From an uncultured delta proteobacterium (GTDB lineage Bacteria > Desulfobacterota > Desulfobulbia > Desulfobulbales > Desulfocapsaceae): a stretch of 64,000 nt of DNA. A program made the position numbers and the translations under genes. Below are positions 15,101-52,064 of the stretch, piece after piece; position 1 is the first letter of the stretch; each line of letters starts with the position of its first letter. The notes beneath the pieces are model-generated. The model was not told the origin of the DNA. It saw only the letters and a program-made list of their open reading frames with translations, and searched no databases. The stretch is taken from assembly GCA_963798425.1 (NCBI GenBank), contig CAWCTP010000012.1:153470-217469 (forward strand), read 5' to 3'.

Positions 15101-15152
15101 GGCTTTTTCTATAGACTCGTTATTAGGCATAAGAATCCGGGGGTGGCCGTAG

Positions 15153-19740: not shown

Positions 19741-19825
19741 TTTGGATTTGGCTTCCATTCTCATTTGGCTTTGCGATCAATTTTTACGAAGGACAACACT
19801 GCTATACTACTTATCGGTTGCAATT

Positions 19826-19986: not shown

Positions 19987-19990
19987 AGGC

Positions 19991-21469: not shown

Positions 21470-21568
21470 GCGCACTACGATCAACCAAGACGAAGTTGAT
21501 TTTTAACCATTTATTATTTATCGCGGCAATTGGTGCCTGCCGTGTCAAGAATAAAGATTTGCTCCCTC

Positions 21569-23360: not shown

Positions 23361-24508
23361 TTTGCCTCCTTTTTAAGTTGTAACCCAACGGTGATTTAAT
23401 GTTTGGCTTTTTTATCTTTGACACTTTGCCAGCGTTATGACGACGTTCCTGCGTATCTAGATGGAATCTTGTTGCCAGGAGATCCTTTAGTCAAATGGGT
23501 CGCAGACTACTTATCCGTGTTGGATTTCACAACTTTTCCCTCCGTATAAAATTTTCTATTTCAACCCTGCCTTGGTAAGGGTTGACTGTAATCTTATATG
23601 CAAAATGTCCCAAGAAGCCAATTTTGCATAAGGTCATATACCTCCTGAATTTGAATTGTCCTCGCAGCAGAAGACTGTTTGGAAAAACTATCTTCAAGCC
23701 ATGAACACCAATAATGGGTCAAGCAAAGAGTAAACGTTCACCAGCAACCCATATGCTTGCGATGAACCCCCCTTGCATAGGAACGTTGTGTTTTTTCTCT
23801 ATCTGCTTTCTGATGCTCGACTCTTCTTCCAGATCCCTTTTTCCAAGGAGGGCCTTTATCTCTTCAACAAACCCGACACATCCTCTTGTATTCATGGAGT
23901 TGTGATAGCTTTGATATCTTATATTTTTCTTACATTTTTAAGGTTGATAGAGAAAAACGAGCTTGCTGGGGACGTCACATATCACGCTTTTGGATATTCT
24001 TGGAGTTTGGGGTCAATGAAATGCTCGAAAGACATAACCGAGGCTGTCGTTCTTGGTTGAAGTTGTATTTTACTCCACCGACCTCCACGGTGCCATTGAG
24101 AGTGGCAGACTTAATGGTGCCGGACATATGGTTGGGGCTCTCTTCACCTAATTGCCTTCTTTTAGGTCTTGATGAGGCCTCCCGCTTTGCTGAAGTTAGG
24201 GTGGTGATTGATGAGAAAATGGTTTCTTATCACAATCTTTCTCGGTCGCCAATCTTCCCAGTCCGAAACACCTGTGATATTAAATTCCCTTATGATTTCA
24301 TGAAGATTTGTAAACTCTGACAATTGCCACTTCATTTTCGAGATCGGGAGTTCTGAACCTGAAGTTCGGTTTGCACCGCATTGAGTTTCCGGGCACCTGT
24401 GTCTTTCGACAAGTATTTGGTGGCTGTTTATAATTGGAATGATTATCATAAATAGGGTAATGTAACATTGAAGTAAATACTTAAACACTCTACGGAATTC
24501 ACTCTGTT

Positions 24509-36258: not shown

Positions 36259-36274
36259 TGGCTTGAAAATTGCT
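36259..36274 (+). promoter_or_regulatory. sigma54 (-24/-12) promoter candidate
   Basis: tTGGCttgaaaatTGCt: GG-N10-GC with TGGC and TTGC elements, about 210 bp upstream of the enhancer-binding protein (EBP) start. Confidence 0.5.
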
Positions 36275-36485
36275 TGTTTCAAACAGCACAAACCAACCGA
36301 GTTTTTGCAGTTCTTCAGTACAAATTGATCTACCCATTACCCATCAAGCTTATCTACTACAGCAAGAAAACTTGCATGGGTATAGTTCAGCTAAAGATTG
36401 TTATGCTGTCGTTCATAACACTTCTTTCTTAATTCTTAGGGCCGAAAAATGTCATAATAAAATCCCCATCGAGAGAGGACGCCTA

Positions 36486-37967
36486 ATGAGTCGTTTATCA
36501 CCACGCGTTTCCGAGAAAGTTGAAGCATCGATCATATTCCCTGATAAAAAAGAACGATCCGTTCCTTTGACGAATATCGGTTTAGGTGGCGTTTTTCTGG
36601 ATGTTAGCAAAGAAATTTCGGCTAAATGGTTCGCACCTCAAACAATTCACACTCTCCGCATCAGTACAAAGAAATTTGGCGAGTTGATGCTTGGTACAAT
36701 GGTTGTTAGAAATGGAGGGAAGGGTGTCGGTCTTGTTTTTTCTGCAATCAGTCATGGAGATCTTTTAAAAATATGGGACTTCATTCGCGAGCTTATAGCC
36801 GATAAAACACGATGCCCCTATTGCAATCACGCCTTCAAGGTATTTCCTGAAAACTGTCCCGGTTGTCAACGTAATCTGAATTTCGAAAACAAGGGATATC
36901 TCACCTACTGGAAAAAGAAAGCACTCCTCAATCAGGTAACCGACAGCTTGAGCAACCTTACTGTCAGTGAGTTACAAAGAGTCTCGCAATTCATTGAAAA
37001 GGACTCCCGGGCTATGAAGCAATTGCCTGTGTCTAGTGAAACTGAGGAATTTGTGGGTACGTGTCCAGCAATTATGAAAGTTTTTTCTTTAATCCGAAAG
37101 ATATCTCTCACCGATCTCCCCGTCGTCATCTTTGGAGAAAGTGGGACGGGTAAGGAATTGACCGTCCGCGCCATACATGAAAGAAGTCCAAGAAACAAAG
37201 GGCCTTTTGTTGCTATAAATTGTGCGGCAATACCTGAGTCACTTCTTGAATCTGAACTTTTTGGACATACTAAAGGAGCTTTTACAGGGGCTCACGAGAT
37301 CAAGAAAGGAAAATTTGAATTGGCCGATAAGGGAACGCTGTTTCTTGATGAAATTGGAGAAATTCCGCTTAATTTGCAGCCAAAACTCCTTCGAGTCCTG
37401 GAGACCCAGGTAATTGAGCCTATCGGTTCGCAGGAAACCAGAAAGGTGAACGTTCGAATTCTCGTCGCAACAAATGTTGATCTTGAGGAGGCCGTAGCTG
37501 CGGGTCGTTTCAGGCTGGATCTGTATTACCGGCTTAAGGTTTTCACCATTAACCTTCCTCCCCTGAGGGAACGAGGAGAAGACAAAGGCATCCTGGCACA
37601 ATATTTCCTAAAGAAGATCAAGCAGGAAAGTAACTGGGCATGTAAAGGTTTCACCCCGGAGACTATGGACGTGATCAGTAAGCACTCCTGGCCAGGTAAC
37701 GTAAGAGAGATGATCAACCGTATTAGACGAGCGGTAGTGGTTCAGGACGAATGGATCAGGCCGGAAGATATGGAACTCGATGTCGAACCCAACACAAAAA
37801 ATCAACCAAGACTCAAAGAAGCCAAGGAAAACCTCAAAGAAAAAATGATACAGAACGCCTTAGTAGAGAATGGGTACAACATTTCTCAAACCGCCAAATC
37901 TCTGGGGATCAGCCGTCAGCATCTCTATCTGCTCAAAAAGAAATTTTCTATCGAAGTCTCCCGGTAA
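36486..37967 (+). CDS. sigma54-dependent transcriptional activator with N-terminal PilZ domain, Zn-ribbon and C-terminal Fis-type HTH
   Basis: GAGAGAGGA RBS. PilZ motifs RLSPR and NIGLGG. CPYCN…CPGC ribbon. AAA+ core with GESGTGKEL and GAFTGA. C-terminal HTH (ISQTAKSLGISRQHLY). Confidence 0.85.
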   Translation: MSRLSPRVSEKVEASIIFPDKKERSVPLTNIGLGGVFLDVSKEISAKWFAPQTIHTLRISTKKFGELMLGTMVVRNGGKGVGLVFSAISHGDLLKIWDFIRELIADKTRCPYCNHAFKVFPENCPGCQRNLNFENKGYLTYWKKKALLNQVTDSLSNLTVSELQRVSQFIEKDSRAMKQLPVSSETEEFVGTCPAIMKVFSLIRKISLTDLPVVIFGESGTGKELTVRAIHERSPRNKGPFVAINCAAIPESLLESELFGHTKGAFTGAHEIKKGKFELADKGTLFLDEIGEIPLNLQPKLLRVLETQVIEPIGSQETRKVNVRILVATNVDLEEAVAAGRFRLDLYYRLKVFTINLPPLRERGEDKGILAQYFLKKIKQESNWACKGFTPETMDVISKHSWPGNVREMINRIRRAVVVQDEWIRPEDMELDVEPNTKNQPRLKEAKENLKEKMIQNALVENGYNISQTAKSLGISRQHLYLLKKKFSIEVSR

Positions 37968-38230
37968 GGAACATACACGACACCTGTCATATAGGTGTTA
38001 CATTTCTGTTTGTTTTACTGTTTTCAATAGTTTAAACGACTATTTGGTCCCAGTTTGTAATATTTACCTTACAATTGAGGACGTATTTTTTTGTGTTGTT
38101 TTGCAATAACGACCAGTTAGGTTTGTGGCATGGTTTTTGTATATTTAGACACAAACGTACGGATATGAAACTTACGCTGAGCCAAGAGAACGTTCGAACG
38201 AAAACTATTCAAACAATAAGGAGGGTTCTT

Positions 38231-38620
38231 GTGAAAAAATATGTTTTGAATATTCTCATTATTGCCCTCCTTTTCATTTCAAACATAGCACTCGGTCAAG
38301 AAAGCAATCCGACGGTCCCTCAATTTCTTGAAACCAGCCAATTTTGCCAAGACTGTTTAACTGATGCCACGGTTGAGAAGTCCCATAAAACGATTGCTAC
38401 CAAGGAGCTTTCCTCTGAAGAACTTGACCGGATTATTGGAGAGGGACCAGCAAGTTTTATATTTCAAAATGACAACCAATCAAAAAAAAGGAGCCTGGCT
38501 GAGGTTATTCTCTGGGATGAAATCTCAAAACGAAGGAATGCCTCCATCGCGAGCAGTATCGCATTGAAGAGTGGAGGATCTTTAATGCATGGTGTCCAGG
38601 TAAACGGGGTTATCAAGTGA
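38231..38620 (+). CDS. small secreted hypothetical protein
   Basis: AAGGAGG followed by a GTG start. Signal peptide (KKYVLNILIIALLFISNIALG). The start codon is uncertain. Confidence 0.4.
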   Translation: MKKYVLNILIIALLFISNIALGQESNPTVPQFLETSQFCQDCLTDATVEKSHKTIATKELSSEELDRIIGEGPASFIFQNDNQSKKRSLAEVILWDEISKRRNASIASSIALKSGGSLMHGVQVNGVIK

Positions 38621-38747
38621 ACTATTCCATAGGAAGGATAAAGCCATAAGTGAAACAGCACAAAACAAAGAGCAAAGGGCGCCTTGAAGATCAAAAAACA
38701 AGGTTAGCAAAACGGAAAAAATTGACAAGAAAGGAGGTGGAAGAAAG

Positions 38748-39302
38748 ATGAGAAAATATTTGATCTTATTTCTAGCGTTCGCTTTCATGCAATCACCCCT
38801 TGCCTGGGGAAAGTCATCGAGTCTGACGGATGATGAGATGGAAGGGATATACGCCACAGGTGTGGATATAAGTGGAGGCACCCTGGTAGGCGTTCAAGAC
38901 ACAGTCATTGGTAGCGACGGTGCCATTGCGGTGGCCAATGCAACCGATAGCGCAATTGCCAATGACAAATCGTCTTCGGTGGCCAATACAAATGATAGCG
39001 CTGTACAGGTTGGTGTCAATAATAGGGAAAACGGCCAAAATCAAATGGATAATGCTGGATCCACAGTACAAGGAGGAGATTCGACGGTGGTCAATGTGGA
39101 CGGAGATAACAGAGATCAAAACAACCTGAATAAAACCGTTCAAGTCAATGATGAAGGTCAATCGAATAATCAAGGAATTATTGCCAACTTGTCACAAGGG
39201 ATTTTCGTACAGCCGGTTAATAGTGTGTCGCTGGCGAATGCGTCAATGAACAGTGACATCTCTCAACACAATACGGTTACAATCATGACAGTCAACTATT
39301 AA
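38748..39302 (+). CDS. secreted Asn/Asp-rich low-complexity protein, paralog family member 1
   Basis: AAAGGAGG RBS. Signal peptide, then the shared motif SLTDDEMEGIYATGV. Imperfect repeats (VANATDSAIAND / VANTNDSAVQVG). No Cys. Confidence 0.6.
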   Translation: MRKYLILFLAFAFMQSPLAWGKSSSLTDDEMEGIYATGVDISGGTLVGVQDTVIGSDGAIAVANATDSAIANDKSSSVANTNDSAVQVGVNNRENGQNQMDNAGSTVQGGDSTVVNVDGDNRDQNNLNKTVQVNDEGQSNNQGIIANLSQGIFVQPVNSVSLANASMNSDISQHNTVTIMTVNY

Positions 39303-39321
39303 ACTTTAGAAGGAGGACATT

Positions 39322-41058
39322 ATGAAAGGATTTAAGGTATACATGAGCTCACTCGCTTTGGTAGGGTTTCTGGTGTCTCCAGCATGGTCGACCCAGACCG
39401 CGCTCTCAGATTCGGACATGGATGGGGTTTATGCCCAGGGAATCACCATTTCGAACACCTACAACGATAACGATACTTTCAACAACACAACTACCCAGAA
39501 AAGTTCAAACTCCCTGAAGAGCAATCAAGCCAACCTGGCAAGCAATAATGCCCAAGCCGCGGCTTTAGGTAGCGGCGGGGATGCAAAGGGTGAAGCGGAG
39601 ACTGAAGGTAATAACAATGCCAACGGCGGCGATGGCGGTACCGGTGGTGCCGGTGGGCCTGGTTTTGGTCTTGGTCTTGGTCTTGGTGACAGTGGCGGCA
39701 ACACCGGCACCGGTAGCGGCACCGGCGGCAACGCTGGTGGCGGCGGTGGTGGCGGCACCGGTGGTCTCGCCGGTAATTTAGTCCCCGGTGGAAATGCTTT
39801 CGGCGGACCGGGCCTGGCTGGATCTGGAGCAGGGGTCCTGAATCCTAATGCTAACATTGATCCTGATATTCCAATTAGCGCCAATGTAGCGGCCACCCTG
39901 CAAACGTCTTTGGGTCTTAATGTCCAGGTTATTGCAGATATTAATGCAGCAGACAATGGTTCAGTTGCTATCGATGATATTGACGACTCAGCCGTCGCCA
40001 ATCTTAGTTCTATAGCCAATCGTAACAATAAAGGAAATTACCAAGCAGCAATTAATGGAGACAATGTCTTCAACAACTTGCAAAATCAGATCAGTCTGGA
40101 CGACAGCACCGTCTTTGGCAATGAATCACCGTCAATTAATACAGTTATTGGAAATGTGGCTGCGCCGAAAGCAGTGGCATTTGGTTCTGCGTACTCTGGG
40201 CCAGCCTTTGCCGGTGCGTCTAACAAAAGTGATCAGTTTAATGTTCCGGTTGCGGTCAGTGCAGCAACGAACGTTGGGCTGACGGATGCATATGGCAGGA
40301 CTTATGCCGATGCTGATGGTGGCGATGCACTGCAAGTTCCAATTGCTGCATCAGCCAACTTGGGTAAAGCCGATGCTGATGCTGACGGCGGTGCCTCTTT
40401 TGCAGCTGACGGAGCACTTGGCTTAACAGGTGCCGGCAGTGCTGCCTTTAATCCTAGCGGTAATGCTGCTGGACTCGCCGGCGCTACAGGCGGAGTCGGC
40501 GGCAATGGCGGGGACGGCAATGATGGTAATGCTCTGGCCGCCGCACTCGCTAGGGGTGGCAGTGACAACGATGCTCTAAGCGCTGCACTTGCTGCTCAGG
40601 GATTTGATCAGAAGGCTAAAGCCGGCGATGCCAATGGTGGTACAGCTGATGCTTATAACGACCAGAGCAATAAAAATTCTGCCGCTGCAATTGCGGATAC
40701 CAGTGGAAAAGCGCTGGCAGCTTCGGATGTAAAAGCAATCAACGAGCAGTACGCCAAGTCCGATGAAGCTAAGGCAGAAGGGGAAAATTATGCCAAGCAG
40801 GAAAATGATGTCAATGCAAAAAGCACCGCTACAAACCTGACCGCCGCTGATGCAAGTGGCACAGTAGCTGTCGTGACTGTTGATCAGAACAATCTGGTAA
40901 AATCCCTCCAGGTAAGTGGGAGCAATGATAACAAAGGCAACGTATTCCTGTCAATTCAAAGTAGTGTGCAACAGCAGGTGAACAACGTTTCAACTTCTGG
41001 CTATTCATCACCTATAACCCAAGGCAATGCAGTGGCCGTGAATACTCTGTTCAATTAG
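39322..41058 (+). CDS. secreted Gly/Ala/Asn/Asp-rich low-complexity protein, paralog family member 2
   Basis: GAAGGAGG RBS. Signal peptide plus ALSDSDMDGVYAQGI. A long GGTGGAGGPGFGLGLGLGDSGG… tract. No Cys. 578 aa. A Pro-rich antisense ORF is disregarded. Confidence 0.65.
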   Translation: MKGFKVYMSSLALVGFLVSPAWSTQTALSDSDMDGVYAQGITISNTYNDNDTFNNTTTQKSSNSLKSNQANLASNNAQAAALGSGGDAKGEAETEGNNNANGGDGGTGGAGGPGFGLGLGLGDSGGNTGTGSGTGGNAGGGGGGGTGGLAGNLVPGGNAFGGPGLAGSGAGVLNPNANIDPDIPISANVAATLQTSLGLNVQVIADINAADNGSVAIDDIDDSAVANLSSIANRNNKGNYQAAINGDNVFNNLQNQISLDDSTVFGNESPSINTVIGNVAAPKAVAFGSAYSGPAFAGASNKSDQFNVPVAVSAATNVGLTDAYGRTYADADGGDALQVPIAASANLGKADADADGGASFAADGALGLTGAGSAAFNPSGNAAGLAGATGGVGGNGGDGNDGNALAAALARGGSDNDALSAALAAQGFDQKAKAGDANGGTADAYNDQSNKNSAAAIADTSGKALAASDVKAINEQYAKSDEAKAEGENYAKQENDVNAKSTATNLTAADASGTVAVVTVDQNNLVKSLQVSGSNDNKGNVFLSIQSSVQQQVNNVSTSGYSSPITQGNAVAVNTLFN

Positions 41059-41174
41059 TATTTTATTTGACCAAGAGTTAAATGAAAAGGAGAGGGGGCA
41101 CAGAATCAGACCGTGCCCCCTTCTCCTGTTTCTCGTTTCAATTCAGGTTGAATGAAATAAAGGAGATAGAAGAA

Positions 41175-41831
41175 ATGCTCGCTCAAAAGCCAATAAAAGT
41201 ACTTTTAATAATGGTACTCATAGTAGGGTTATTCCCTGTTATCGGGTGGGCAGGGCCAAGTCTACTGACTGATGATGATATGGATGGAATATACGCCAAG
41301 GGGATCTGGGTAAATTTTGAAATAAACATAGCGCTACCCGGAGGAAACACACTGTCAGTTCCCTTTTCCAATATGTCTAATATGGCCTCGCTAGGTAATA
41401 TAGGGGGGACGGGAGGTGGTGTTGAAAATGTAAGTGTATCTACCCCGTCGTCAACTTCTAATCCAGCCACCGGTCAAAGCACTCCGTCGGTGGTTTCTGC
41501 TCCAGCCACTGGTCAAAGCACTCCGTCTGTGCTTTCTGCTCCAGCTACTAGCCAAAGCACGCCGTCGGCTACTTCCGGAAATACCACAAGTTCTCCTGCT
41601 AATACGGCATCACCTGTTTATGAATATAGCTCTCCGGGATCAGGCTTTATTGTCACTGGCAATGCTATGCAGGGAAACAGTGGACTGATGATAAATGCAC
41701 CCAATTCTGCAGTCAGCATGACCATCAGTGTGGTGGTCCTGAATAACAGTACGGTTGGAGGGAATATTATTCAATCCTCGAATAGCTACCCTACTAACCT
41801 GTTCTTGTCACTTAAAAGCTATATGCAGTAA
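41175..41831 (+). CDS. secreted Ser/Thr/Pro-repeat protein, paralog family member 3
   Basis: AAGGAGA RBS before MLAQKPIKVLL. Signal peptide plus SLLTDDDMDGIYAKGI. Three near-identical ATGQSTPSV(V/L)SAP repeats. Confidence 0.6.
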   Translation: MLAQKPIKVLLIMVLIVGLFPVIGWAGPSLLTDDDMDGIYAKGIWVNFEINIALPGGNTLSVPFSNMSNMASLGNIGGTGGGVENVSVSTPSSTSNPATGQSTPSVVSAPATGQSTPSVLSAPATSQSTPSATSGNTTSSPANTASPVYEYSSPGSGFIVTGNAMQGNSGLMINAPNSAVSMTISVVVLNNSTVGGNIIQSSNSYPTNLFLSLKSYMQ

Positions 41832-42082
41832 GTAAAGCCATAATCCCAATTTGGGATAGATTCCTTTGGATCTTCTTGATCTTTTTGAATAAAGGTACTC
41901 ACTCTATCTCACTCTATTTGGGTTGTGGCTCGTTGAACTATGAATAATTTTGTGTCCGACTCGTTGAGGTCCCTGTTTTTTTATTTTATGAGGGAGGATT
42001 TTCCAACAAGCTGCCAAAAGGTTTCTTTGATTGTTTTTCCTGTGATAAAGAAACTGATTAAAAGAGGGAGGAAAGGGTTGAT

Positions 42083-42793
42083 ATGAAAAAAAGACTTATG
42101 ATGTTTCTGTCCGTTTTGTTGATGCTTCTGCTCTCTGGATGTGCAAAAACAGTCGGACCCAGAATAAGCATAGGCGGAGCAGGATTGGGACTGGTAGTCG
42201 CAATGCCGGTAAAGAGCGACCAGGAGATAAAATGGCAAAATGTCAAAAGGCAAAGTCTGGATATTAGTTGTGGACCGGCAGCCTTGTCCACTTTGATCAA
42301 CTACTATCTTGAAGATCAAGTATCGGAAATGGACATCATAAGCGGTATCCTGACGTCCAGCGACATCACCAAGATAAAAAAAATTCAAAAGAGACAGGCT
42401 TTCTCTTTGTTAGATTTGAAGAAATTTGCAAAATCCAGGGGGTATCAGGCTGCAGGATACAGAGTGGGTATTCAAGAACTGCTGGACTTTGCCAAGCCGG
42501 TTATAGTTCCTATCGAAACCATGGGGTATCGGCACTTTGTTGTGTTCAAGGGGATTAAGGGTGACCGGGTATACCTGGCTGACCCTGCTTTTGGTAACAG
42601 AACGATGCGCTATCCAAATTTTCTGTATGTCTGGAAGCAGCGGGTGGCTCTGGTAGTCAGTGCTCATGATGGAAAAGAAATTAAGAAGCATGATTTGAGT
42701 TTAGATGGTCAGCATGGGGTCTATGTGGAGGGTGGCATGCAGAGGATATTGAACCAGAGCTCTATAAATTTTATACCCTTGGGAGACTTCTAA
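42083..42793 (+). CDS. peptidase C39-like domain lipoprotein
   Basis: Lipobox LLSGC. C39 hallmarks: Cys in SLDISCGPAALSTLINYY, His in YRHFVVFKGIKGDRVYLADPAFG, then WKQRVALVV. Confidence 0.7.
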   Translation: MKKRLMMFLSVLLMLLLSGCAKTVGPRISIGGAGLGLVVAMPVKSDQEIKWQNVKRQSLDISCGPAALSTLINYYLEDQVSEMDIISGILTSSDITKIKKIQKRQAFSLLDLKKFAKSRGYQAAGYRVGIQELLDFAKPVIVPIETMGYRHFVVFKGIKGDRVYLADPAFGNRTMRYPNFLYVWKQRVALVVSAHDGKEIKKHDLSLDGQHGVYVEGGMQRILNQSSINFIPLGDF

Positions 42794-42891
42794 CAGAGTT
42801 CTCAGACAGAGTTATCAGTATGCTTGATTCGAAAAAATTAAGAAAAGGGTGTCTAGCCCTTTTCTTAATTTTTTCTTGTTGATTCAATCTG

Positions 42892-43929
42892 CTAGAATAA
42901 GTCAAAACGGAAAGGTACTGCCAGCTGGACGGTTACGTCGGGCGCATCCTCTGATAGTCCAATGGCGATGGAGAAATCGAGGTACCCACCTTTATCAAGA
43001 GCTAACACAGTCCCGAACTTGAGTGACGGAATGTTTTGATGGCTTCCGGAAATGGTTCCGGTTTTAATTCCGGCATTGTTATCGGGAAACTGGATATCCT
43101 CAACTGAACTTCTGAAGATAACTTGATGAGAATACTGCATATTTAAAGAAAAATCCGGACTCAATGCATAGGCAAATCCCAGCCCCCAATCTATGCTGTC
43201 GCCCGGATCATACTCTACATCTCCTACATTAACATCCGGTCCCAAATCTATCGTTCTTGAAATATTGTATGTATAGCCGATATTAGAAAAAACGACCACA
43301 GGGTCCATGGTTTTTATGGCGCTGAGAGTTCCATGGATTCCCCAGAAACCAGACCCCGTGGGGATCTCGTCATCATTCAGATCGAAGGGGTCCTTGCCTG
43401 TTCTGGTCTTTACCCTTACTGAGCCTACCAAGGCCGGTCTGCTGGCTTTTTCATTTAAAAATTGATAACTGAGGCCAGCCTCTATATCTCCAAAAGCTGT
43501 ATCAGTTGTTTTTGTTTCTTCACCGCTTTGGTACGAGATAATGTCGTTGGAATACCGCCATGGCACCATTACGTCCATTTGCAATTGGTTCCAAAGGCCA
43601 TATCGAAAAGTAAGGCTGGGTTCTACTATATTTCTTTCGACATCGGCCACATCAAAGGAACCTATAATAACCCCCGGAAGAACAGCCAAGCCATAAACGT
43701 ACAGGCGGTTGGTTGTTTGTAGTGAATAGCGGAGTTGAGGAGAGATCTCAAGCTGCCCCTGTTGGAGCAGGACGCCCCCTCTTTCGGCAACAGCTGGTGC
43801 AATTGAAAGTCTGATATCTTCAGGATTTTCAGCACCTTGTTGGGCGGACAAGGCTGTTTGGCCATTTCCAATGGTGCACAGGCCAAGAGTCATTACCATA
43901 ATAACACTCTTACAAATCGGCTTTTTCAT
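42892..43929 (-). CDS. outer-membrane beta-barrel protein
   Basis: AAGGGAGGA RBS before MKKPICK. Signal peptide. Alternating beta-strand pattern. Ends …VPFRFDLF (aromatic C-terminus). Convergent with the C39 gene. Confidence 0.6.
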   Translation of the reverse strand: MKKPICKSVIMVMTLGLCTIGNGQTALSAQQGAENPEDIRLSIAPAVAERGGVLLQQGQLEISPQLRYSLQTTNRLYVYGLAVLPGVIIGSFDVADVERNIVEPSLTFRYGLWNQLQMDVMVPWRYSNDIISYQSGEETKTTDTAFGDIEAGLSYQFLNEKASRPALVGSVRVKTRTGKDPFDLNDDEIPTGSGFWGIHGTLSAIKTMDPVVVFSNIGYTYNISRTIDLGPDVNVGDVEYDPGDSIDWGLGFAYALSPDFSLNMQYSHQVIFRSSVEDIQFPDNNAGIKTGTISGSHQNIPSLKFGTVLALDKGGYLDFSIAIGLSEDAPDVTVQLAVPFRFDLF

Positions 43930-44198
43930 CGTTCCTCCCTTGCTGCTCATATGAGCGATAACTATTAACAAATAGGTGTAAGGTGATGGGTGATATGTAG
44001 TCGTTTCTGTGCTTGTCTTGAGGTTTACCAGATATTTCTTTTCTCTTCCTGAGTTTTATTAAACCTATCGTATTTCTATATCTTTTTCTATGATTTTCGT
44101 AACTGTTCAGAAAAATAATATCGAAAAATCAATTCTGTCTGAGCAGAATCCAACTGCCTTTCAAATATACAATCAATCTATGCTCGATTACAGACATC

Positions 44199-44224
44199 AC
44201 ACGAAGGGATACCACGAAGGGATA
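44199..44224 (+). repeat. perfect tandem 13-bp direct repeat (cacgaagggatac x2)
   Basis: About 125 bp upstream of the helicase start. Candidate regulator binding site. Confidence 0.5.
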
Positions 44225-44347
44225 CGGCAGTGATAAAAGATATAGAAAATCAATAAAAACATCGATATTGGGCACTAAGTCAGGTAAACCTGAAATTGGG
44301 ACATAGCATAACTATTCAATAACACAATTCCATGATATTGGCATTAT

Positions 44348-47300
44348 ATGACCAGTGAAAGTCAGGATTTCCTTCGACAGTGCCTTCTTCTTGATATCGA
44401 GGTTAACGAAAAGAACGTTATTTATTCGATAGGTGGTGCTTTTCAGGGAGATTCTTTTCTGATCAAACCTGGGAAACAGATATCTTTTCAGCAGCTTCAG
44501 GAATTAGATAAATTCGGTCGTTCAGCGCAGTTTATTCTAGGTCATAATATCCTCAGTTATGATATTCCGCGCCTCAAGCAGATTGATCCTTCTCTGCAAC
44601 TCTTGAAAAAGCCGGCAATTGATACTCTGATTCTCTCTCCGCTTGCTTTCCCGGAAAATCCTTATCACCGATTGGTGAAAGATTATAAGCTCGTCCGGGA
44701 CAGCGTTAACGACCCGGTGCAGGATGCTCTTTTAGCCGGTAAAGTCTTTTCCGAGCAGTGGGATGCTTTTACCGGACAGATCGGCGCTGGCTCGGACGCA
44801 CCGATACTTTTCAGAAGTTTTCTGCACAATGATGGAAATCTGGGCGGAACCGCTGCAGCATTTGAGGCAATGAGTGTGCCTCTATTGAGAGGAGACGATC
44901 TTTACGAATCCTTTTGTTGGTTGGCACAAAAACATGGCTGCAGGACCAGTGCTGAAAATATTGTCGAGCAACTTATTAATGGAACGGTGAGTCATCCTCC
45001 GCTTGCCTATGTTACTGCCTGGTTGACAGTTGCTGGTGGAAATTCGGTTTTGCCGCCCTGGGTAAAACATCACTTTCCTGAAGTGCCTTTTTTACTCAAT
45101 CAACTTCGGCAGAATGGCTGCGGGGAGAGTAATTGCAGCTATTGCAGGGAGCACCATGATCCTCACCATTATCTGCAAAATTATTATGGTTTCCAGGATT
45201 TTCGGTTAGAGCCGGCTACAGAAGAAGGAAAAAGTTTACAGGCGGAAATTGTAGCAGCTGCCGCAAAAAATCTGTCACTTTTTGCCACGCTTCCGACTGG
45301 CGGCGGCAAATCGCTCTGCTATCTGCTTCCAGCCCTGATGCGCTACCAGCAACGCAATATGTTGACTATCGTCATTTCGCCCCTCCAGGCCTTGATGAAA
45401 GATCAGGTCGATAATTTCCTGAAACAGACGGGAACAAAGCTTGCGGTAGCTTTATACGGCATGCTGACCATGCCGGAGCGCGGAGAGATTATAGAGGGAG
45501 TTCGTCTTGGCGATGTCGGGATTCTGTTTGTCTCCCCCGAACAGCTTAGAAATCAATCGTTTATCAATACTATCAGTCAACGGGAAATTGGGGCCTGGGT
45601 TTTTGATGAGGCGCATTGTCTCTCTAAATGGGGCCATGACTTTCGGCCCGATTATCTCTACTCCATCCGGTTCATTCGTGAGTTTGCTCAAAAAGAAAAA
45701 ACCGGTATACCGCCTGTCCAGTGCTTTACCGCAACCGCTAAAAAAGATGTAAAAGCCGAAATAATTGACATCGTCCAGAGCGAACTCGGTTTGCGGCTGC
45801 ATCAATTTGAAGGCGGACACGAACGGACCAATCTGCATTATGAAGTGTGGCCTGTAGAAAAGCATGAAAAGAACCAGACAATTCTCGAATTACTCAGGGC
45901 GAGGTATCAGGGCAAAGGTAGCGTGGTTATTTATTGCGCGACGAGAAAAAATACCGAAATGTTATCGGAATTTCTCAATATGGCGGGATATACCGCTGAA
46001 GCCTTTCATGCAGGTCTAGACCCATCGTTGAAAAAACGTATCCAGGAAAATTTCATCGAGGGGGCAACCCCAGTTATTTGCGCCACCAACGCTTTTGGCA
46101 TGGGGATCGATAAGGACGACGTCCGTCTGGTAATTCATGCAGATATTCCCGGATCGCTGGAAAATTATCTCCAGGAGGCCGGTCGAGCAGGACGTGATCG
46201 CAGTGCCGCTGAGTGTATCCTCATATTTGCCGAGCAGGATATTGAAGGGCAATTTAGACTCAGCAGCAAATCCAGATTGACGCAGCGGGAAATTGCTCAG
46301 TTTCTTCGAGGGTTGCGATATGCTGCAAAAGGTGGAGATTCTGTGGTGCTGACAGCAGGGGAATTGCTGCGCCTCGACGTTGTGGACATCGATCCGGAGG
46401 AGCATCCAAATGCAGATACCCAGGTTCGCACCGCAGTCTCCTGGCTAGAACGTGCCGGTTTTCTTGAACGTAATGAAAATCACACCAGGGTCTTTCAGGG
46501 TAAGCCATTGGTCCGAAGCCTGGCGGAAGCGACCGAAAAAATGGGCAAACTTAATCTCTCTCAGAGGCAACAGGCCAGATGGCTGGCAATTTTAGCAGTT
46601 TTGATGGAGCGGCGACAGAATCAGTCCTTTAGTGCAGATGAACTGGCGGGGCAGTCAGCATTTACAACCACCCCTGAAGATCCGCCAAATGAAACAGAAA
46701 CCCTGCGTGTTATTCGTACTTTAAACGATATGGCCGAACAGGGCTTACTCTCAAAGGAAACGATCCTTTCAGCCTATGTCCGTTATAAAGTCTTGAAAAA
46801 TACAGAAAAACAACTGCAGCAGATAGTTATGCTGGAGCACGATTTCCTCCAGGTTTTACAGGAGACCGCACCGGAAATGGAGGTTGAGGCATTACTGGAG
46901 ATCGATCTTCGGCAAGTGAACCAGCTGTTACTGGAGAAGGGCCATAAAGAAAGCACCCCGCATATCCTGAAACTAATTCTGCATGGTTTATCCCGTGATG
47001 GCAAAGGGCTTGCGGGACAGCGTGGGAGTCTTTCGCTTAAAGCCAAAGGAAATAATAGATTTTCCCTGTGCCTGCATCGTGATTGGCAATCGCTGGTGCA
47101 AACGGTGCGTACTCGTCAATTGGCTGCTTCTGCCGCATTGAAGGTAATGCTTGGCACGATTGAGCCTTCTGCCAAGCCAAATGCAAGTCTGTTAGTCGAG
47201 TTCACCCTGGAAAAAATAATTGCCGGGTTAAAAACAGATTTACTTCTATTGCCAAAACTCCGGGACCCGCTTGCTGCGGCGGAACGTGCGCTGACTTTTA

Positions 47301-49513
47301 TGCATGAGCTGGGAATTATCGAATTACAGCAGGGACTGGCTGTTTTTCGTCAGGCCATGACCATCAAGATAAACCCGGAAGCAAAGCGAAGACGCTATTC
47401 CGGGACTGATTTCTCTCCTCTTAAAACCCACTATAACGAACGGAATTTCCAGATTCATGTGATGAACGAGTACGCGAGGCGGGCGCTGGAGAAGCTGAGT
47501 GTGGCAATGAATCTGGTCTCTTCGTATTTCAACGATGATAAAGACGACTTTATAAAACGGTTTTTTCCGGGGAAGAAGAAACATTTGGAAAGGGCGACCA
47601 GTGAGCAGTCGTATCTCAGGATAGTCGATGATTTGAAAAATGAAAGTCAACAAAGGATCGTTGCTGCGGAAACCGACCGCAATATGCTGGTTCTGGCCGG
47701 TCCTGGTTCGGGGAAGACAAGGGTTGTTGCTCATCGCGTGGCGTATCTGCTCCGGGTGAAACGGATAAAACCCGAGGCGATTCTGGTGCTCTGCTTTAAC
47801 CGCAGTGCGGTGATGAGTCTTCGGAGAAGAATTCGGGACCTGGTGGGGGACGACATGTTTGGGGTGACAACACTCACCTTTCATGGTTTGGCCTTGCGGC
47901 TGACCGGCAGGTCTTTGGTCACTGGAGAACAGAAAACTGGTCTCGATGAAATCGATTTTTCCATGGTTATCCAGGATGCTATCAGGTTGTTAAAAGGTGA
48001 GGAGGATGTCTTGGGTTTTGGTGATGTCCCTCCCAGATATACCCTGGTCGGCAAAATCAGCCATATCCTGGTCGATGAATATCAGGATATTGATGCCGAA
48101 CAGTATGAACTTGTCGCACTCCTGGCAGGTAAGACGCTGGAAGAAAAGGATCAGAAAATGACAATCCTTGCGGTAGGAGACGACGACCAGAACATCTACC
48201 GCTTCAGGGGGGCCAATGTCGGATTTATCCGAAAGTTCCATGAGGATTATAAGGCGGAAATTCACTACCTCATAGAAAACTACCGATCGACTGCACATAT
48301 AGTCTCTGCTGCAAACACTCTTATCAGCATGAATTCCGACCGGATGAAAATCGGTCATTCACTTCAGGTGAACCAGGCAAGGATTTCGTTGCCGCCTGGA
48401 GGAAACTGGCATTTGAATGATCCCCTAACAAAAGGTAGAGTACAGCGAATTGAAGTTGAGAACCAGCAGGATCAGGCCTGCGTGCTCTTACAAGAATTGC
48501 GACGTTTGCAGCGATTGCAGAATGGTTTTGCATTTGGCGAGTGTGCTGTTCTTGCCCGTGAGTGGAAAGGTCTTGATCTGGTTCGGGCTGTTTTGGAACA
48601 TGAAAAAATCCCGGTCAGTCTGAACTGGGGGCGTACGAATGCTTTTCCACGCATGTCGAAGATTAGGGAAAATTGCGTGCTTCTCGATCAATTACGGGAG
48701 ACAAGGTCGGAAATGAGAACAGCAAGTTCTCTCCTCACCTTTGTGCCGGTTGATATAAATCAAGATACTCTTTGGCACACTAATCTCAGGAGGTTGATAG
48801 CAGAATGGAGAGAGGAAACAAAGGATGTTCCACAGCCGGTGTCCCTTATTGAGGACTATTTTTACGAAGCACTCTCCGACCAGAGTCGGTCTAAAAATCT
48901 CTCTAACGGGATTTTTCTCTCCACTGTTCATTCTATAAAAGGTCTTGAATTCGACCATGTTTTTCTTCTCGGAGATGGTTGGCAGAAAAAACAGGGGATG
49001 GAAATGGAAGAGGAACGAAGGTTGTATTACGTCGGCATGTCGCGGGCGCGTGAGACGTTGCATCTCTTCAATCTTTCAGATAGTCCTAATCCACACGCAG
49101 AATCACTCACCGGCGACTTTCTGATCGCTCGAAAAGTGAAACCCGTAGAAAAATTCCAACCTTTAAATACACACTATGCCCTATTAGGTATGGGGGATCT
49201 TTTTCTCGATTACGCCGGACGAAAAAATGCGAGTCATCAGATTCGGGGAGCTTTGCAAAAATTACGGGCCGGAGACCGACTGCTGATAGAAGTGCGCAAT
49301 CGACAGTTAGAGCTGGTCAATGAACAAGGAATTTCAGTTGCTCGATTATCGAAAACTGCGCAGGCAGAGTGGGAAAATCGGGTGAGAGCGATCAGGGAAA
49401 TTCGGGTTATAGCAATGGTTCAGCGTTGTAAAAAGGATATCATTGATCAAACTTTCGGCAATCGATGTTCAGAAGAAAATTGGGAGGTTCCTATTGTCGA
49501 ATTTTGTTTTTAG
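44348..49513 (+). CDS. DEDDh-exonuclease / RecQ-like SF2 helicase / UvrD-like SF1 helicase triple-fusion protein
   Basis: 1721 aa. N-terminal DnaQ-like exonuclease (LLLDIEVNE…ILGHNILSYDIPRL). RecQ motifs (TGGGKSLCYLLPA, SPLQALMKDQV, DEAHCLSKWGHDFRPDY, ATNAFGMGIDKDDVR, QEAGRAGRD). C-terminal UvrD motifs (AGPGSGKTRV, ILVDEYQDID, VGDDDQNIYRFRGA, NYRST, VHSIKGLEFDHVFLL, VGMSRARE). Confidence 0.85.
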   Translation: MTSESQDFLRQCLLLDIEVNEKNVIYSIGGAFQGDSFLIKPGKQISFQQLQELDKFGRSAQFILGHNILSYDIPRLKQIDPSLQLLKKPAIDTLILSPLAFPENPYHRLVKDYKLVRDSVNDPVQDALLAGKVFSEQWDAFTGQIGAGSDAPILFRSFLHNDGNLGGTAAAFEAMSVPLLRGDDLYESFCWLAQKHGCRTSAENIVEQLINGTVSHPPLAYVTAWLTVAGGNSVLPPWVKHHFPEVPFLLNQLRQNGCGESNCSYCREHHDPHHYLQNYYGFQDFRLEPATEEGKSLQAEIVAAAAKNLSLFATLPTGGGKSLCYLLPALMRYQQRNMLTIVISPLQALMKDQVDNFLKQTGTKLAVALYGMLTMPERGEIIEGVRLGDVGILFVSPEQLRNQSFINTISQREIGAWVFDEAHCLSKWGHDFRPDYLYSIRFIREFAQKEKTGIPPVQCFTATAKKDVKAEIIDIVQSELGLRLHQFEGGHERTNLHYEVWPVEKHEKNQTILELLRARYQGKGSVVIYCATRKNTEMLSEFLNMAGYTAEAFHAGLDPSLKKRIQENFIEGATPVICATNAFGMGIDKDDVRLVIHADIPGSLENYLQEAGRAGRDRSAAECILIFAEQDIEGQFRLSSKSRLTQREIAQFLRGLRYAAKGGDSVVLTAGELLRLDVVDIDPEEHPNADTQVRTAVSWLERAGFLERNENHTRVFQGKPLVRSLAEATEKMGKLNLSQRQQARWLAILAVLMERRQNQSFSADELAGQSAFTTTPEDPPNETETLRVIRTLNDMAEQGLLSKETILSAYVRYKVLKNTEKQLQQIVMLEHDFLQVLQETAPEMEVEALLEIDLRQVNQLLLEKGHKESTPHILKLILHGLSRDGKGLAGQRGSLSLKAKGNNRFSLCLHRDWQSLVQTVRTRQLAASAALKVMLGTIEPSAKPNASLLVEFTLEKIIAGLKTDLLLLPKLRDPLAAAERALTFMHELGIIELQQGLAVFRQAMTIKINPEAKRRRYSGTDFSPLKTHYNERNFQIHVMNEYARRALEKLSVAMNLVSSYFNDDKDDFIKRFFPGKKKHLERATSEQSYLRIVDDLKNESQQRIVAAETDRNMLVLAGPGSGKTRVVAHRVAYLLRVKRIKPEAILVLCFNRSAVMSLRRRIRDLVGDDMFGVTTLTFHGLALRLTGRSLVTGEQKTGLDEIDFSMVIQDAIRLLKGEEDVLGFGDVPPRYTLVGKISHILVDEYQDIDAEQYELVALLAGKTLEEKDQKMTILAVGDDDQNIYRFRGANVGFIRKFHEDYKAEIHYLIENYRSTAHIVSAANTLISMNSDRMKIGHSLQVNQARISLPPGGNWHLNDPLTKGRVQRIEVENQQDQACVLLQELRRLQRLQNGFAFGECAVLAREWKGLDLVRAVLEHEKIPVSLNWGRTNAFPRMSKIRENCVLLDQLRETRSEMRTASSLLTFVPVDINQDTLWHTNLRRLIAEWREETKDVPQPVSLIEDYFYEALSDQSRSKNLSNGIFLSTVHSIKGLEFDHVFLLGDGWQKKQGMEMEEERRLYYVGMSRARETLHLFNLSDSPNPHAESLTGDFLIARKVKPVEKFQPLNTHYALLGMGDLFLDYAGRKNASHQIRGALQKLRAGDRLLIEVRNRQLELVNEQGISVARLSKTAQAEWENRVRAIREIRVIAMVQRCKKDIIDQTFGNRCSEENWEVPIVEFCF

Positions 49514-49546
49514 AGCCTTAGGTATAAAGTTTCAATAATAAAAATA

Positions 49547-50635
49547 TTATTGAAACTTTATATCCCAATTTTCTGAACAAATAAGTGATGTTCGGGTTAG
49601 CTGTCCTAATTCTTTTCGTACCTTGGCAAGGTAGTCAGGACCAATTTTCTTGCCCCACTCCTGCAGTACCGGTTCTGCCAACTTTTTCAGTTTATTTATA
49701 TCCGGGTCTGAAAGCTTGATGAATTCAACTCCCGCCTCTTTGGCTTTTGCCACTTCGGTATCATATTGTTGACGGGTCAGGGCACGGCTGCTCTTGCTTT
49801 CTTCGGTGATAACAGACAGCAGGATTTCCTGCAAATCCTTTGGTAATTTGTTCAGCCATCGTTTGTTGATGAAATGAACGAAGAGGCCCTGTGCATAATC
49901 GAGCTCGGTAAAGTATTTGGCTATGGTGAATTTTTTGGTGATATTACAGACAATTGCTGTGTGGTCCAGGCCGGTAATAACGCCTGTCTGCAGTGCCTGG
50001 GGAACATCCGGCCATGGCATCACTGTGAACTTTAATCCCCATGCCTTGTAGGTGTCGGTATTAACAGGAGCTTCAGCAATACGGAAGTTGGTGTTCTTTG
50101 CGTCTTCTATAGTTTTTACAGGAGTGGTGGTTGCCCATCCATAGGGGCCGTAACCGGTTACATCAGCTACGAGGAGGCCTTGCTTTTGAGCACCGTCGGC
50201 AAAGGGTTGCCAGAGCTGAGGAGTATTTCTGAATTTGTCAAGCTTGTCAAAAGTGTCGATTACGTAGGGAAGATTGACGATGCCAATGAGGTCCGAGACA
50301 TTTGCGGCGGCAACAGAAGAACTCATCATCCCTTGAATCGCACCTAACTTGAGCTTACTGATAACATCTTTTTCACCACCGAGCTGGCTCAAAGGACGAA
50401 AATCCACATAGAGGCGGCCACCCGATTTTTCCCATACTTTGTCGCGAATACGATATCCTACACCAACGCCTTCTATAACCGGGTGAGAGACGTTGGATAA
50501 AATATAAGTGTACTCAGCACCACTCGGATCAAATTTAGGCTGCCATGCCTCCAGCGGATTTTTCTTTGCTTCTGCGGCAAATACGACACCTGGCAAAGAG
50601 AGGGCAAGCAATAAAACGAGAAACAGTTTTTTCAT
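49547..50635 (-). CDS. TRAP-type transporter substrate-binding protein (DctP family), orphan
   Basis: AAGGAGA RBS before MKKLFLVLLL. Signal peptide. DctP-family blocks (LGGEKDVISKLKLGAIQGMMSSS…LPYVIDTFDKLDKF). No dctQ or dctM adjacent. Confidence 0.75.
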   Translation of the reverse strand: MKKLFLVLLLALSLPGVVFAAEAKKNPLEAWQPKFDPSGAEYTYILSNVSHPVIEGVGVGYRIRDKVWEKSGGRLYVDFRPLSQLGGEKDVISKLKLGAIQGMMSSSVAAANVSDLIGIVNLPYVIDTFDKLDKFRNTPQLWQPFADGAQKQGLLVADVTGYGPYGWATTTPVKTIEDAKNTNFRIAEAPVNTDTYKAWGLKFTVMPWPDVPQALQTGVITGLDHTAIVCNITKKFTIAKYFTELDYAQGLFVHFINKRWLNKLPKDLQEILLSVITEESKSSRALTRQQYDTEVAKAKEAGVEFIKLSDPDINKLKKLAEPVLQEWGKKIGPDYLAKVRKELGQLTRTSLICSENWDIKFQ

Positions 50636-51017
50636 GATGGGGTCTCCTTTTTTATGGATCAGATCAGAACTGAGGGAAATCATTTCGTCAGATATTTTGA
50701 GAAATGATTTGTCCTGTATTAATGCCCTTTTCAATAACATGAACGAGCAATGTTAGTAAACCATTTTGTTGAATCAAATGCGTCATTGTTCGCAAAACAG
50801 AGAATAGTCTTAGGTGTTTTGTCGTATTTGACTAATTTAATAATGGAAATATTGAATTACGATTAACTGGCTGGTGAAAGGTGAGGCGCATAACTGTTGT
50901 GTTATTAGATACTTATATGTGAGGGATCTATCGAATTATGTTGCATGTTCCTTGCAGCTTTCCGCTACCATACTCCTGGCAAATTAAGTCCGTACCTAAA
51001 AATAAAGGAGGGAGAGA

Positions 51018-52064
51018 ATGAGAACCATCAAAATGGCGACTTGGGTAATCATGATATTTGTGATTGGGAGTTTGGTAAGTGTTCCAGTATGGGGTGCAGA
51101 TGACCCTCTTGCCAAATGGCAACCCTCATTTGATCCTTCGGGAGCGAAATACGTGTATCTCCTTTCCTGTGTTGGACATCCGGCTATAGAAGGAGTGTCT
51201 GTTGGTTTTCGAATTAGAGATAGGGTCTGGCAGGAATCAAAAGGTCAGCTGTATGTCGATTTTAGACCTTTGAGTCAGCTTGGCGGTGAGAAAGATGTTA
51301 TCAGCAAGCTCAAGTTAGGTGCGATTCAGGGGATGATGAGTTCCTCTGTTGCCGCAGCCAATATTGCACCGGAGCTTGGGGTCGTCAACCTTCCTTATAT
51401 AGTCGATACCTTCGCAAAACTCGATAAATTCAGGGATACGCCGGAGCTATGGAGTCCGTTCCGCGATGCTGCGTTGTCAAAGGGACTCAAGGTTATTGAT
51501 TTTACGGGGTATGGCAGCTATGGTTGGGCAACCACCAGACCGGTCTCTACTCTTGCAGAGGCCAAAGGAGTAAACTTTCGAATTGCTGAGGCTCCTGTCA
51601 ATATTGATTCGTACAAAGCCTGGAAACTGAAATTTGCAGTTTTGCCATGGCCGGATGTTCCCCAGGCATTGCAGACAGGGGTAATCGACGGACTTGATCA
51701 TACCCCCATCGTTTGCAACATTTCTAAAAAATTTACCGTTGCAAAATACTATACCGAGCTTGATTATGCTCAGGGCTTATATGTCCATATCATTAACCAA
51801 AAATGGCTCCAACAGCTCCCTCAGGATTTGCAGCAGCTCCTCCTCAAGGTAGTAAAAGAAGAGAGTGCTGTCGCCAGGGCCCGGACAAAACAGCAGCAAC
51901 TAGAGCAGATCGCTGCGGCTAAGGCAGACGGAGTAGCTTTTCTACAACTGAAACCTGTTGATAAGGAAAAAATGGTAGCAGAAAGTGAAGAAGTATACGA
52001 CAAGTGGGGACCAAAGATCGGTCAGGAGTATCTGGACAAGGTGAGGAAGGTATTGCAGGAATAG
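51018..52064 (+). CDS. TRAP-type transporter substrate-binding protein (DctP family), paralog of 49547..50635, orphan
   Basis: AAGGAGGGAGAG RBS. About 70% identical to the divergently transcribed neighbour. Confidence 0.75.
   Translation: MRTIKMATWVIMIFVIGSLVSVPVWGADDPLAKWQPSFDPSGAKYVYLLSCVGHPAIEGVSVGFRIRDRVWQESKGQLYVDFRPLSQLGGEKDVISKLKLGAIQGMMSSSVAAANIAPELGVVNLPYIVDTFAKLDKFRDTPELWSPFRDAALSKGLKVIDFTGYGSYGWATTRPVSTLAEAKGVNFRIAEAPVNIDSYKAWKLKFAVLPWPDVPQALQTGVIDGLDHTPIVCNISKKFTVAKYYTELDYAQGLYVHIINQKWLQQLPQDLQQLLLKVVKEESAVARARTKQQQLEQIAAAKADGVAFLQLKPVDKEKMVAESEEVYDKWGPKIGQEYLDKVRKVLQE

Follow-up and report, generated by a model that had tools for sequence, protein, structure and literature searches.

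A gene for a 1721-residue protein that joins an exonuclease fold and two complete helicase motors in one chain lies at 44348–49513 on the forward strand of a 64,000-nt stretch of contig CAWCTP010000012.1 (positions 153,470 to 217,469 of that contig; assembly GCA_963798425.1, an uncultured member of the Desulfocapsaceae), which as a whole we call the window. The gene is an ordinary member of a family that is already present in the databases under a generic name, those homologues that carry a name being entered as ‘RecQ family ATP-dependent DNA helicase’; the family represents a so far uncharacterised form of helicase–nuclease fusion. Its architecture is fixed and collinear and has five parts: an exonuclease domain (with an adjoining Cys region), a RecQ core of helicase superfamily 2 (SF2), a series of winged helices, a UvrD-type motor of superfamily 1 (SF1) and a C-terminal domain.

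The open reading frame (ORF) opens with an ATG, the start Met being common to orthologues, and runs without an internal stop through 1721 residues to its stop codon; an open run of 1721 codons in DNA of ~45% GC is not due to chance. The sequence-only reading from which this analysis set out had described one continuous frame of this length at these coordinates, with exonuclease, RecQ and UvrD modules in a single polypeptide, and both the frame and the fusion are borne out elsewhere. When 5.8 billion proteins were searched, more than 120 homologues came up that are ~1720 aa long, with 62–90% identity and ~100% coverage, mainly from Desulfobulbaceae, Desulfopila, Desulfogranum and Desulfobulbus, while a single unbroken ORF of at least 1,600 aa is present in the 66 fetched loci with enough sequence, and RefSeq plasmid annotations likewise carry the full-length fusion as one protein. 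The recurrence of one ORF at 66 independent loci, drawn from many different assemblies and phyla, excludes an artefact of assembly, and we give next to no credence to the related explanation that two or three adjacent genes (exonuclease/RecQ and UvrD) have been read as one. Shorter ORFs in a few related loci are all that could be cited for that explanation, which found no support, whereas the ~1720-aa frame in the 66 loci, the database proteins and the plasmid annotations speak against it, as does the linker region, which is itself conserved and folds confidently in prediction. The longest ORF spans 717–1462 aa in six loci (L016, L029, L031, L051, L061 and L062), with frameshifts, pseudogenes, indel errors or contig and locus ends as possible causes.

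The catalytic motifs of the exonuclease and of both motors are kept across 88 diverse full-length members (33–80% identity), and comparison with the closest orthologue (locus L002, protein 90% identical) gives ratios of nonsynonymous to synonymous substitution (dN/dS) of 0.12 for the exonuclease, 0.03 for the RecQ core, 0.05 for the winged-helix array, 0.09 for the UvrD motor and 0.19 for the C-terminal domain (0.08 for the whole ORF), such that purifying selection acts on all five segments. The sequence-only reading had named two findings that would count against it, loss of the motif residues on alignment and a split of the frame into separate genes; the first failed to materialize, as the Walker-type lysines K321 and K1123, the DEAH box and the DEYQD motif are kept in the 88 members, and the second is countered by conservation across genomes. 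The domain annotation and the search for homologues of like architecture that it had recommended likewise came out in its favour, with both motors placed above curated Pfam cut-offs and such homologues found in at least 581 species genomes as well as in the 66 single-ORF loci.

The N-terminal domain (aa 1–135; 44348–44752, forward strand) has the RNase H-like exonuclease fold of the DEDD (DnaQ-like, DinG-like) 3′–5′ superfamily, a fold that was identified, as were those of the middle segment, by structure prediction alone. As a single sequence it has no match in Pfam or in PDB sequence searches; a profile of 51 N-terminal sequences gives weak matches only, to a TREX-like exonuclease (E 0.024) and to the exonuclease domain of Escherichia coli Pol II (E ~2), and PF13482 is matched by two of the 51 members. 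The four acidic residues of the superfamily, D16, E18, D72 and D126, are found in 202–209 of 209 N-termini, the shortfall being nearly all alignment gaps, and the same four are kept in the 88 full-length members. H66 is present in every one of the 209 that covers its position and is the equivalent of H90 of Staphylococcus aureus DinG, a residue that touches the penultimate phosphate (PMC12345164). The sequence-only reading had called the domain a DEDDh, DnaQ-like exonuclease, of which the DEDD fold and the four acidic residues stand and the ‘h’ does not: at position 121, where the H-x4-D His of motif Exo III is expected, 188 of the 209 sequences have Asn (Asn121 in the window protein), 20 have Ser, one has Ala and none has His. 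As the general-base His is thus replaced by Asn or Ser family-wide, the domain falls outside the DEDDh class, and with no Tyr at the DEDDy position of Exo III (Y-x3-D) in any of the 209 and no Pfam match to DNA_pol_A_exo1 it also falls outside the DEDDy or WRN-type exonucleases. Directly upstream of Exo III lies an invariant, family-specific loop, DTLxLSPLAFPxNPYHRLVKDY (aa 92–113), of which Tyr106 or His107 is a candidate to replace the missing general base. The domain is followed by a helical region (aa 136–275; 44753–45172, forward strand), delimited by secondary structure, predicted local distance difference test (pLDDT) scores and conservation, in which C198, C258, C263 and C266 are conserved and H270 is present in 95%; this cluster, directly before RecQ motif 0, is a putative Zn site.

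The SF2 core (aa 276–645; 45173–46282, forward strand) is clearly of the RecQ family. Pfam places DEAD at aa 297–469 and Helicase_C at aa 508–617, both above curated cut-offs, and the chain passes the NCBIfam model for the RecQ subfamily, TIGR00614 (284 bits over aa 276–640; cut-off 219.8). All the marks of RecQ helicases are present, namely motifs 0, I, Ia, II, III, V and VI and the aromatic-rich loop, with PTGGGKS (K321), DEAHC (420–424), WGHDFRPDY, TATA and QEAGRAGRD kept in at least 90% of the 88 members, and the best PDB matches are the RecQ proteins of Deinococcus radiodurans (2.5e-64) and E. coli (1.3e-58), with WRN at 3e-42. That the motor is complete and has no obvious RQC or HRDC domain, as first read from the letters, is upheld by the motif conservation and by Pfam, which finds neither domain in the protein; the RecQ Zn-binding subdomain is absent as well. 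Models for particular RecQ-like proteins fit less well. The canonical RecQ equivalog (TIGR01389/PRK11057) reaches 338 bits against a cut-off of 640 and the NCBIfam DpdF equivalog NF041063 reaches 193 against 550, while the PADLOC models for DpdF (354 bits; aa 271–647) and PsyrT (272 bits; 25–372 of 689) align to the RecQ core only.

Between the motors lies a segment (aa 646–1094; 46283–47629, forward strand) that the sequence-only reading had left as ~450 residues of unknown nature and that the predicted structure makes legible. The AlphaFold model of this middle region (pLDDT 95.3) contains four tandem units, each of three helices and a hairpin, separated by long helices, and a helical bundle then connects them to the SF1 motor. 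Of the four winged helices the first (~aa 690–720, WLERAGxLxRxENxTxVF) is the best conserved. No match was found in Pfam and PDB sequence searches with the region as a single sequence, and Foldseek against PDB returned nothing significant (top match RPC62, E 0.06); from the predicted units and this null result together, we take the region to be a tandem winged-helix array without a solved multi-domain homologue.

The second motor (aa 1095–1585; 47630–49102, forward strand) is a UvrD/PcrA/Rep-like helicase of the SF1A group. UvrD-helicase (149.8 bits against a cut-off of 23), AAA_19, UvrD_C (87.9 against 25.6) and UvrD_C_2 all lie above curated cut-offs within aa 1098–1575, and the complete SF1A motif set (Q and I–VI) is kept in the 88 members: the Q motif, AGPGSGKT (K1123), DEYQD (1243–1247), AVGDDDQNIY, NYRS, V with T.H..KG.EF and VI with RRLYYVGMSRA, in agreement with the complete UvrD/Rep-like motor that had been read from the sequence. 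E. coli UvrD (9e-44) and PcrA (1.9e-38) are the nearest PDB entries, GajB matching only at 1e-7, and the PADLOC GajB model matches this motor at 176 bits. None of the SF1A equivalogs is reached, with PcrA at 194 bits against 911, UvrD at 182–193 against 965–1144, Rep at 142 against 951 and helicase IV at 138 against 543. The chain does not end with this motor: the three modules named in the sequence-only reading are real, but it had passed over a further segment of ~135 residues (aa 1586–1721; 49103–49510, forward strand) with conserved columns and a terminal WEVPxVE, for which neither the single sequence nor a 55-sequence profile gave a Pfam or PDB match. No PDB entry matches the exonuclease, winged-helix or C-terminal segments by sequence beyond the weak profile matches given above, and Pfam searches with the whole protein and with the C-terminal profile detected no PD-(D/E)xK domain. 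A relaxase or conjugative helicase, and a RecB-type nuclease in the C-terminal domain, were considered and rejected, no supporting domain having been found.

The family is widespread. A HMMER search with the middle region (aa 640–1094) against 1.84 billion cluster representatives returned 750 clusters, 471 of them at E ≤ 1e-10, and in nearly all near-full-length matches (1,670–1,910 aa) this region occupies about residues 620–1130. A scan of one genome per species places relatives in at least 581 species genomes from several bacterial phyla, with Desulfobulbales, Desulfobacterales, Geobacter, Syntrophobacteraceae, Methylococcales, Alkalilimnicola, Thiohalocapsa, Competibacteraceae and a Chthoniobacteraceae metagenome-assembled genome (MAG) among the matches listed, and tblastn adds Alphaproteobacteria (Rhizobium, Cereibacter, Paracoccus, Croceicoccus, Sulfitobacter, Microvirga) as well as Thiothrix, Allochromatium and Bacteroides/Phocaeicola. 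Even the 1624-aa protein of Bacteroides finegoldii is collinear with that of the window, at 30% identity over ~1600 aa and with the exonuclease motifs and Cys cluster included. The Desulfobulbales and the Methylococcales are each monophyletic in a neighbour-joining protein tree. Phage collections gave no match by tblastn and two of 2.9 million IMG/VR contigs were matched, so that a phage-borne origin, the family being essentially absent from phage collections, was rejected; near-identical DNA was not found in E. coli genomes. One contig labelled Puia sp. (Bacteroidota; JARLGZ010000241.1, locus L014) carries a helicase that nests in the Desulfobulbales clade, with an N-terminal domain 60% identical to that of the window protein; this MAG contig is probably mis-binned, or else a very recent transfer has taken place.

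In two distant lineages the gene resides in the conserved chromosomal backbone. Upstream of it in the window, a MetA-like outer-membrane protein is encoded on the minus strand, and a C39 peptidase, three secreted paralogues and a sigma-54 activator are encoded there too; OmpA and MotA genes are also among its neighbours, and a convergent DctP gene follows downstream; none of these is a defence gene. The order downstream, comprising DctP, RNase PH, a radical-SAM protein, DUF2339 and DUF3999, is the same at L002, and DctP also follows the helicase at L004, L006 and L007, the window locus being syntenic with all four. Similarly, in B. finegoldii, where the exact protein sequence occurs on 363 contigs, the upstream flank is invariant at the loci compared (L093–L096) and only the 3′ flank (~14900–24000) varies by strain: in the element-free arrangement the helicase is followed by dnaK and, further on, recA, while the 3′ variants comprise this run from dnaK through recA, an integrase with HigB, a group II intron reverse transcriptase with SSB and ParA, and a type I restriction–modification (R-M) system with Fic. 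The B. finegoldii helicase thus belongs to the backbone that borders an integration hotspot.

No partner gene accompanies the family as a whole. All-against-all clustering of the four neighbours on either side at 66 loci found no conserved partner, and a conserved operon partner was rejected on this basis; only clade-local synteny emerged, with DctP at five loci and a SWIM-SNF2 gene at four. The 97 immediate neighbours at 65 chromosomal loci fall into 128 Pfam families, mostly housekeeping (for example thymidylate synthase, dihydroorotate dehydrogenase, a Peptidase_M41 (FtsH-type) protein and TamB), with no defence enrichment among these directly adjacent genes, a count made without a background control. 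The SWIM-SNF2 gene accounts for the sole recurrent PADLOC matches among them. Specific partners were also missing: dpd genes are absent from the window neighbourhood and none recurs in the 65 loci, there is no PsyrA partner in that no adjacent gene is conserved in the 66 loci, and no GajA-like gene occurs among the immediate neighbours at the 65 loci or in the window, so the Dpd, PsyrTA (RqlHI) and Gabija systems are not represented here.

RecQ and UvrD/PcrA/Rep helicases translocate 3′→5′ on single-stranded DNA, and DEDD nucleases take nucleotides off 3′ ends with two metal ions. On this background, we read the fusion as a stand-alone genome-maintenance enzyme that processes 3′-ended or branched DNA, a proposal that we judge equally apt to prove right or wrong. 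Its likeliest physiological role, held with the same evenly divided confidence, would be accessory genome maintenance, either in the processing of forks and recombination intermediates or in lesion excision of the MrfAB kind. What tips us towards such a role is that the gene sits in syntenic backbone in two distant lineages and that its immediate neighbours show no association with defence. The RecQ motor could plausibly load where a stalled or reversed fork, a D-loop or a similar branched intermediate offers a tail or gap of 3′ single strand, and it would reel this strand in 3′→5′ while the adjacent first winged helix holds the duplex or junction; the N-terminal exonuclease would then receive and trim the freed 3′ end, in the way of WRN and of DinG proteins that carry an exonuclease. 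Meanwhile the UvrD-type motor, with the winged-helix array as its tether, might run 3′→5′ along a second arm or the complementary strand, where it would strip bound proteins (RecA, RNA polymerase) or unwind the arm, such that the intermediate is dismantled from two sides.

Several points weigh against the genome-maintenance proposal. Both motors are predicted to move 3′→5′, and their cooperation on one substrate is speculation; the exonuclease activity is unproven, given that the canonical general-base His is absent; and a literature search found no paper on this architecture, no solved structure and no experimental data for any member. The distribution is patchy, though the species count given above is a lower bound, and several Gammaproteobacteria outside the Methylococcales are scattered among the Desulfobacterota in the protein tree, which implies horizontal transfer and suggests a descent that is mostly vertical within orders with some transfer besides. 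The family is also found on 19 plasmid records, with some of the copies in accessory regions: the copy on Allochromatium pALVIN01 adjoins a type I R-M system, that of Thiothrix lies near a Cas6 gene and a WYL-domain gene, and those of Cereibacter, Sulfitobacter, Rhizobium and Microvirga lie among toxin–antitoxin systems and insertion sequence (IS) elements. Such surroundings are what one might expect of a single-gene anti-phage or anti-plasmid defence enzyme. By analogy with Gabija (GajA/GajB), Hachiman, Nhi/Hna or RecBCD-like restriction, such an enzyme would sense replication intermediates of foreign DNA, or free ends, through its winged-helix array or motors, unwind them with its helicases and degrade them with its exonuclease. 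The plasmid copies, the patchy spread with its signs of transfer and the integration hotspot, with type I R-M in some strains, that the B. finegoldii gene borders are joined here by the architecture itself, since a large polypeptide with nuclease and helicase is typical of defence, and by the PADLOC matches of DpdF, PsyrT and GajB models to the two motors. Yet those matches are at the level of domains only, the NCBIfam DpdF score being far below its cut-off, and the Dpd, PsyrA and GajA partners are not nearby; the immediate neighbours show no enrichment; the B. finegoldii gene sits in the conserved flank outside the variable island while the window lineage is syntenic across genera; and purifying selection is strong and uniform, with order-level clades that follow taxonomy. 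The link to anti-phage islands that the sequence-only reading had drawn from the size and helicase content of the protein finds no backing here, given the non-defence neighbours in the window, the lack of enrichment among the immediate neighbours at the 65 loci and the want of a conserved partner, and a defence role seems to us possible but rather improbable.

A further explanation, compatible with a role in repair or in defence, is that the exonuclease fold at the N terminus has degenerated and, no longer catalytic, does no more than bind 3′ ends or metal, in which case the protein would be a pure dual helicase or translocase, for example a protein-displacement or branch-migration motor. We think this unlikely. 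In its favour, the DEDDh His is never present in 209 sequences and no DEDDy Tyr takes its place, Pfam does not recognize the domain, and in DinG the activation of the nucleophilic water is assigned to just that canonical His (PMC12345164). But the four metal-binding acidic residues and the phosphate-contacting His66 occur in all sequences that cover them, the invariant loop just upstream of motif III offers Tyr106–His107 as a candidate base, and the exonuclease dN/dS speaks of constraint. Returning to the genome-maintenance proposal and its defence counterpart together, we put forward, as a tentative suggestion about which we are more doubtful than confident, that the family is an unrecognised class of bacterial dual-motor helicase–nuclease, in which RecQ and UvrD motors of the same polarity on a scaffold of four winged helices, with a DEDD exonuclease whose Exo III His would be replaced by Tyr106/His107, dismantle and degrade branched or 3′-ended DNA, either in a new repair pathway of Bacteroides, Desulfobacterota and Proteobacteria that would be a functional counterpart of WRN, or as a new mechanism of single-gene immunity.

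The flanks of the gene contain several further elements. A perfect 13-bp tandem repeat (CACGAAGGGATAC twice; forward strand) exists upstream, as had been noted, but at 44200–44225 rather than 44199–44224 and with no sign of the function its promoter position might suggest. Because only a single degenerate copy is found at L002, the tandem is a recent duplication; there are no further exact copies of the 13-mer in the window, the repeat is lineage-specific and probably not functional, and a regulatory element was rejected for want of conservation at L002. In contrast to the rest of the intergenic region, which cannot be aligned, a block of ~45 nt (ATCAATAAAAACATCGATATTGGGCACTAAGTCAGGTAAACCT; 44249–44292, forward strand, 56–99 nt before the ATG) is kept at L002/L041, L004, L006 and L007 and weakly at L008, is unique in the window and is probably a promoter or operator. 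A sigma-54 promoter was rejected by eye, with no fit, and a simple palindromic operator was rejected as the CAATA-N10-TATTG symmetry is lost at L004 and L008. Past the gene, a consensus scan found an AT-rich hairpin with a 20-bp stem (49521–49564, forward strand) that starts 8 nt past the helicase stop, overlaps the 3′ end of the convergent DctP ORF and is a candidate bidirectional terminator.

Among the neighbours, an OmpA-family gene stands directly upstream of the helicase at L002, and the window consequently holds an extra ~7.7 kb (36270–43971) that does not involve the helicase. This stretch encodes the sigma-54 activator, the C39 peptidase (of periplasmic or lipoprotein type), the MetA-like outer-membrane protein and the three secreted paralogues, which are adjacent (38748–39302, 39322–41058 and 41082–41831), have no Pfam match and share the motif L(T/S)DxxM(D/E)G(I/V)YAxG after the signal peptide; it could be a cassette for a peptidase-processed secreted or surface protein. 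On the other side, two divergent DctP solute-binding paralogues of the tripartite ATP-independent periplasmic (TRAP) transporter type adjoin each other (49547–50740, minus strand, and 51018–52064, plus strand), and no DctQ or DctM was noted among ORFs of at least 150 aa between this pair and RNase PH. In four loci of the Desulfobulbus clade (L003, L025, L026 and L032), a SNF2 helicase gene of ~1012 aa with a SWIM zinc finger lies directly upstream of the fusion on the same strand, with a gap of ~79 nt at L003, and the two could form a clade-specific operon of two large helicases. Topoisomerase III is the classical partner of RecQ helicases; in a single case, the Microvirga plasmid pMVF16-5 (L090), a DNA topoisomerase gene (2105–4552) lies ~2 kb upstream of the helicase orthologue, with an IS630 transposase gene and a small hypothetical gene in between.

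The family spans sulfate reducers, methanotrophs and the abundant Bacteroides of the human gut, and thus includes tractable and medically relevant bacteria. Its characterisation could show by what means two motors that share one polarity work together on branched DNA, whether there is a functional counterpart of WRN in bacteria and how a DEDD nuclease manages without the usual general base, while a role in immunity, if true, would add a new type of single-gene defence.

Comparison with known systems brings out how the fusion draws on several of them and coincides with none. WRN, the eukaryotic Werner syndrome protein, combines a 3′–5′ exonuclease with a RecQ helicase, and the fusion resembles it in having an N-terminal DEDD-superfamily exonuclease, then a RecQ core, then a winged helix in one chain; the parallel with WRN that had been drawn from the sequence therefore holds for the domain order. 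The fusion differs from WRN in lacking the Zn-binding RQC subdomain and HRDC and in adding three more winged-helix units, a complete UvrD-type SF1 motor and a C-terminal domain, and since its RecQ core is nearer to bacterial RecQ, the resemblance is one of convergent architecture rather than orthology. With bacterial RecQ the SF2 core shares the full set of RecQ motifs, the aromatic-rich loop and a score above the subfamily cut-off, but it lacks the RecQ-Ct Zn subdomain and HRDC of canonical RecQ, and the fusion as a whole falls below the RecQ and DpdF equivalog cut-offs, is ~3 times longer than RecQ, RqlH/PsyrT and DpdF, and is without the PsyrA partner or Dpd cluster of the latter two. The second motor shares the complete SF1A motif set with UvrD, PcrA and Rep, yet it lies below all their equivalog cut-offs, sits downstream of a RecQ motor and is followed by a distinct C-terminal domain of ~135 aa; similarity to Gabija GajB is weak (1e-7), and GajA is not present at the fusion locus.

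Exonuclease–helicase pairings are also known from bacteria, in that S. aureus DinG combines a DEDDh exonuclease with a helicase and MrfAB, which acts in mitomycin C repair, brings together a DEDDh exonuclease and an SF2 helicase of 3′–5′ polarity (PMC12345164). DinG of S. aureus and Bacillus subtilis, however, has an XPD-like 5′–3′ helicase and a canonical DEDDh site (H149), whereas the fusion is of RecQ type with Asn for His, and neither DinG nor B. subtilis MrfAB has a second, SF1 motor. The concept of two helicase motors and a nuclease that work together on DNA ends is shared with RecBCD, AddAB and AdnAB, but these multi-subunit complexes carry SF1A and SF1B motors of opposite polarity (or one that is dead) and PD-(D/E)xK nucleases, in contrast to the SF2 and SF1A motors, both expected to run 3′→5′, and the DEDD exonuclease of the single-chain fusion, which accordingly falls outside their class. 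The exonuclease–helicase pairings of WRN, DinG and MrfAB on the one hand and the dual-motor RecBCD on the other are central models of genome maintenance, and the family described here joins both ideas in one chain.

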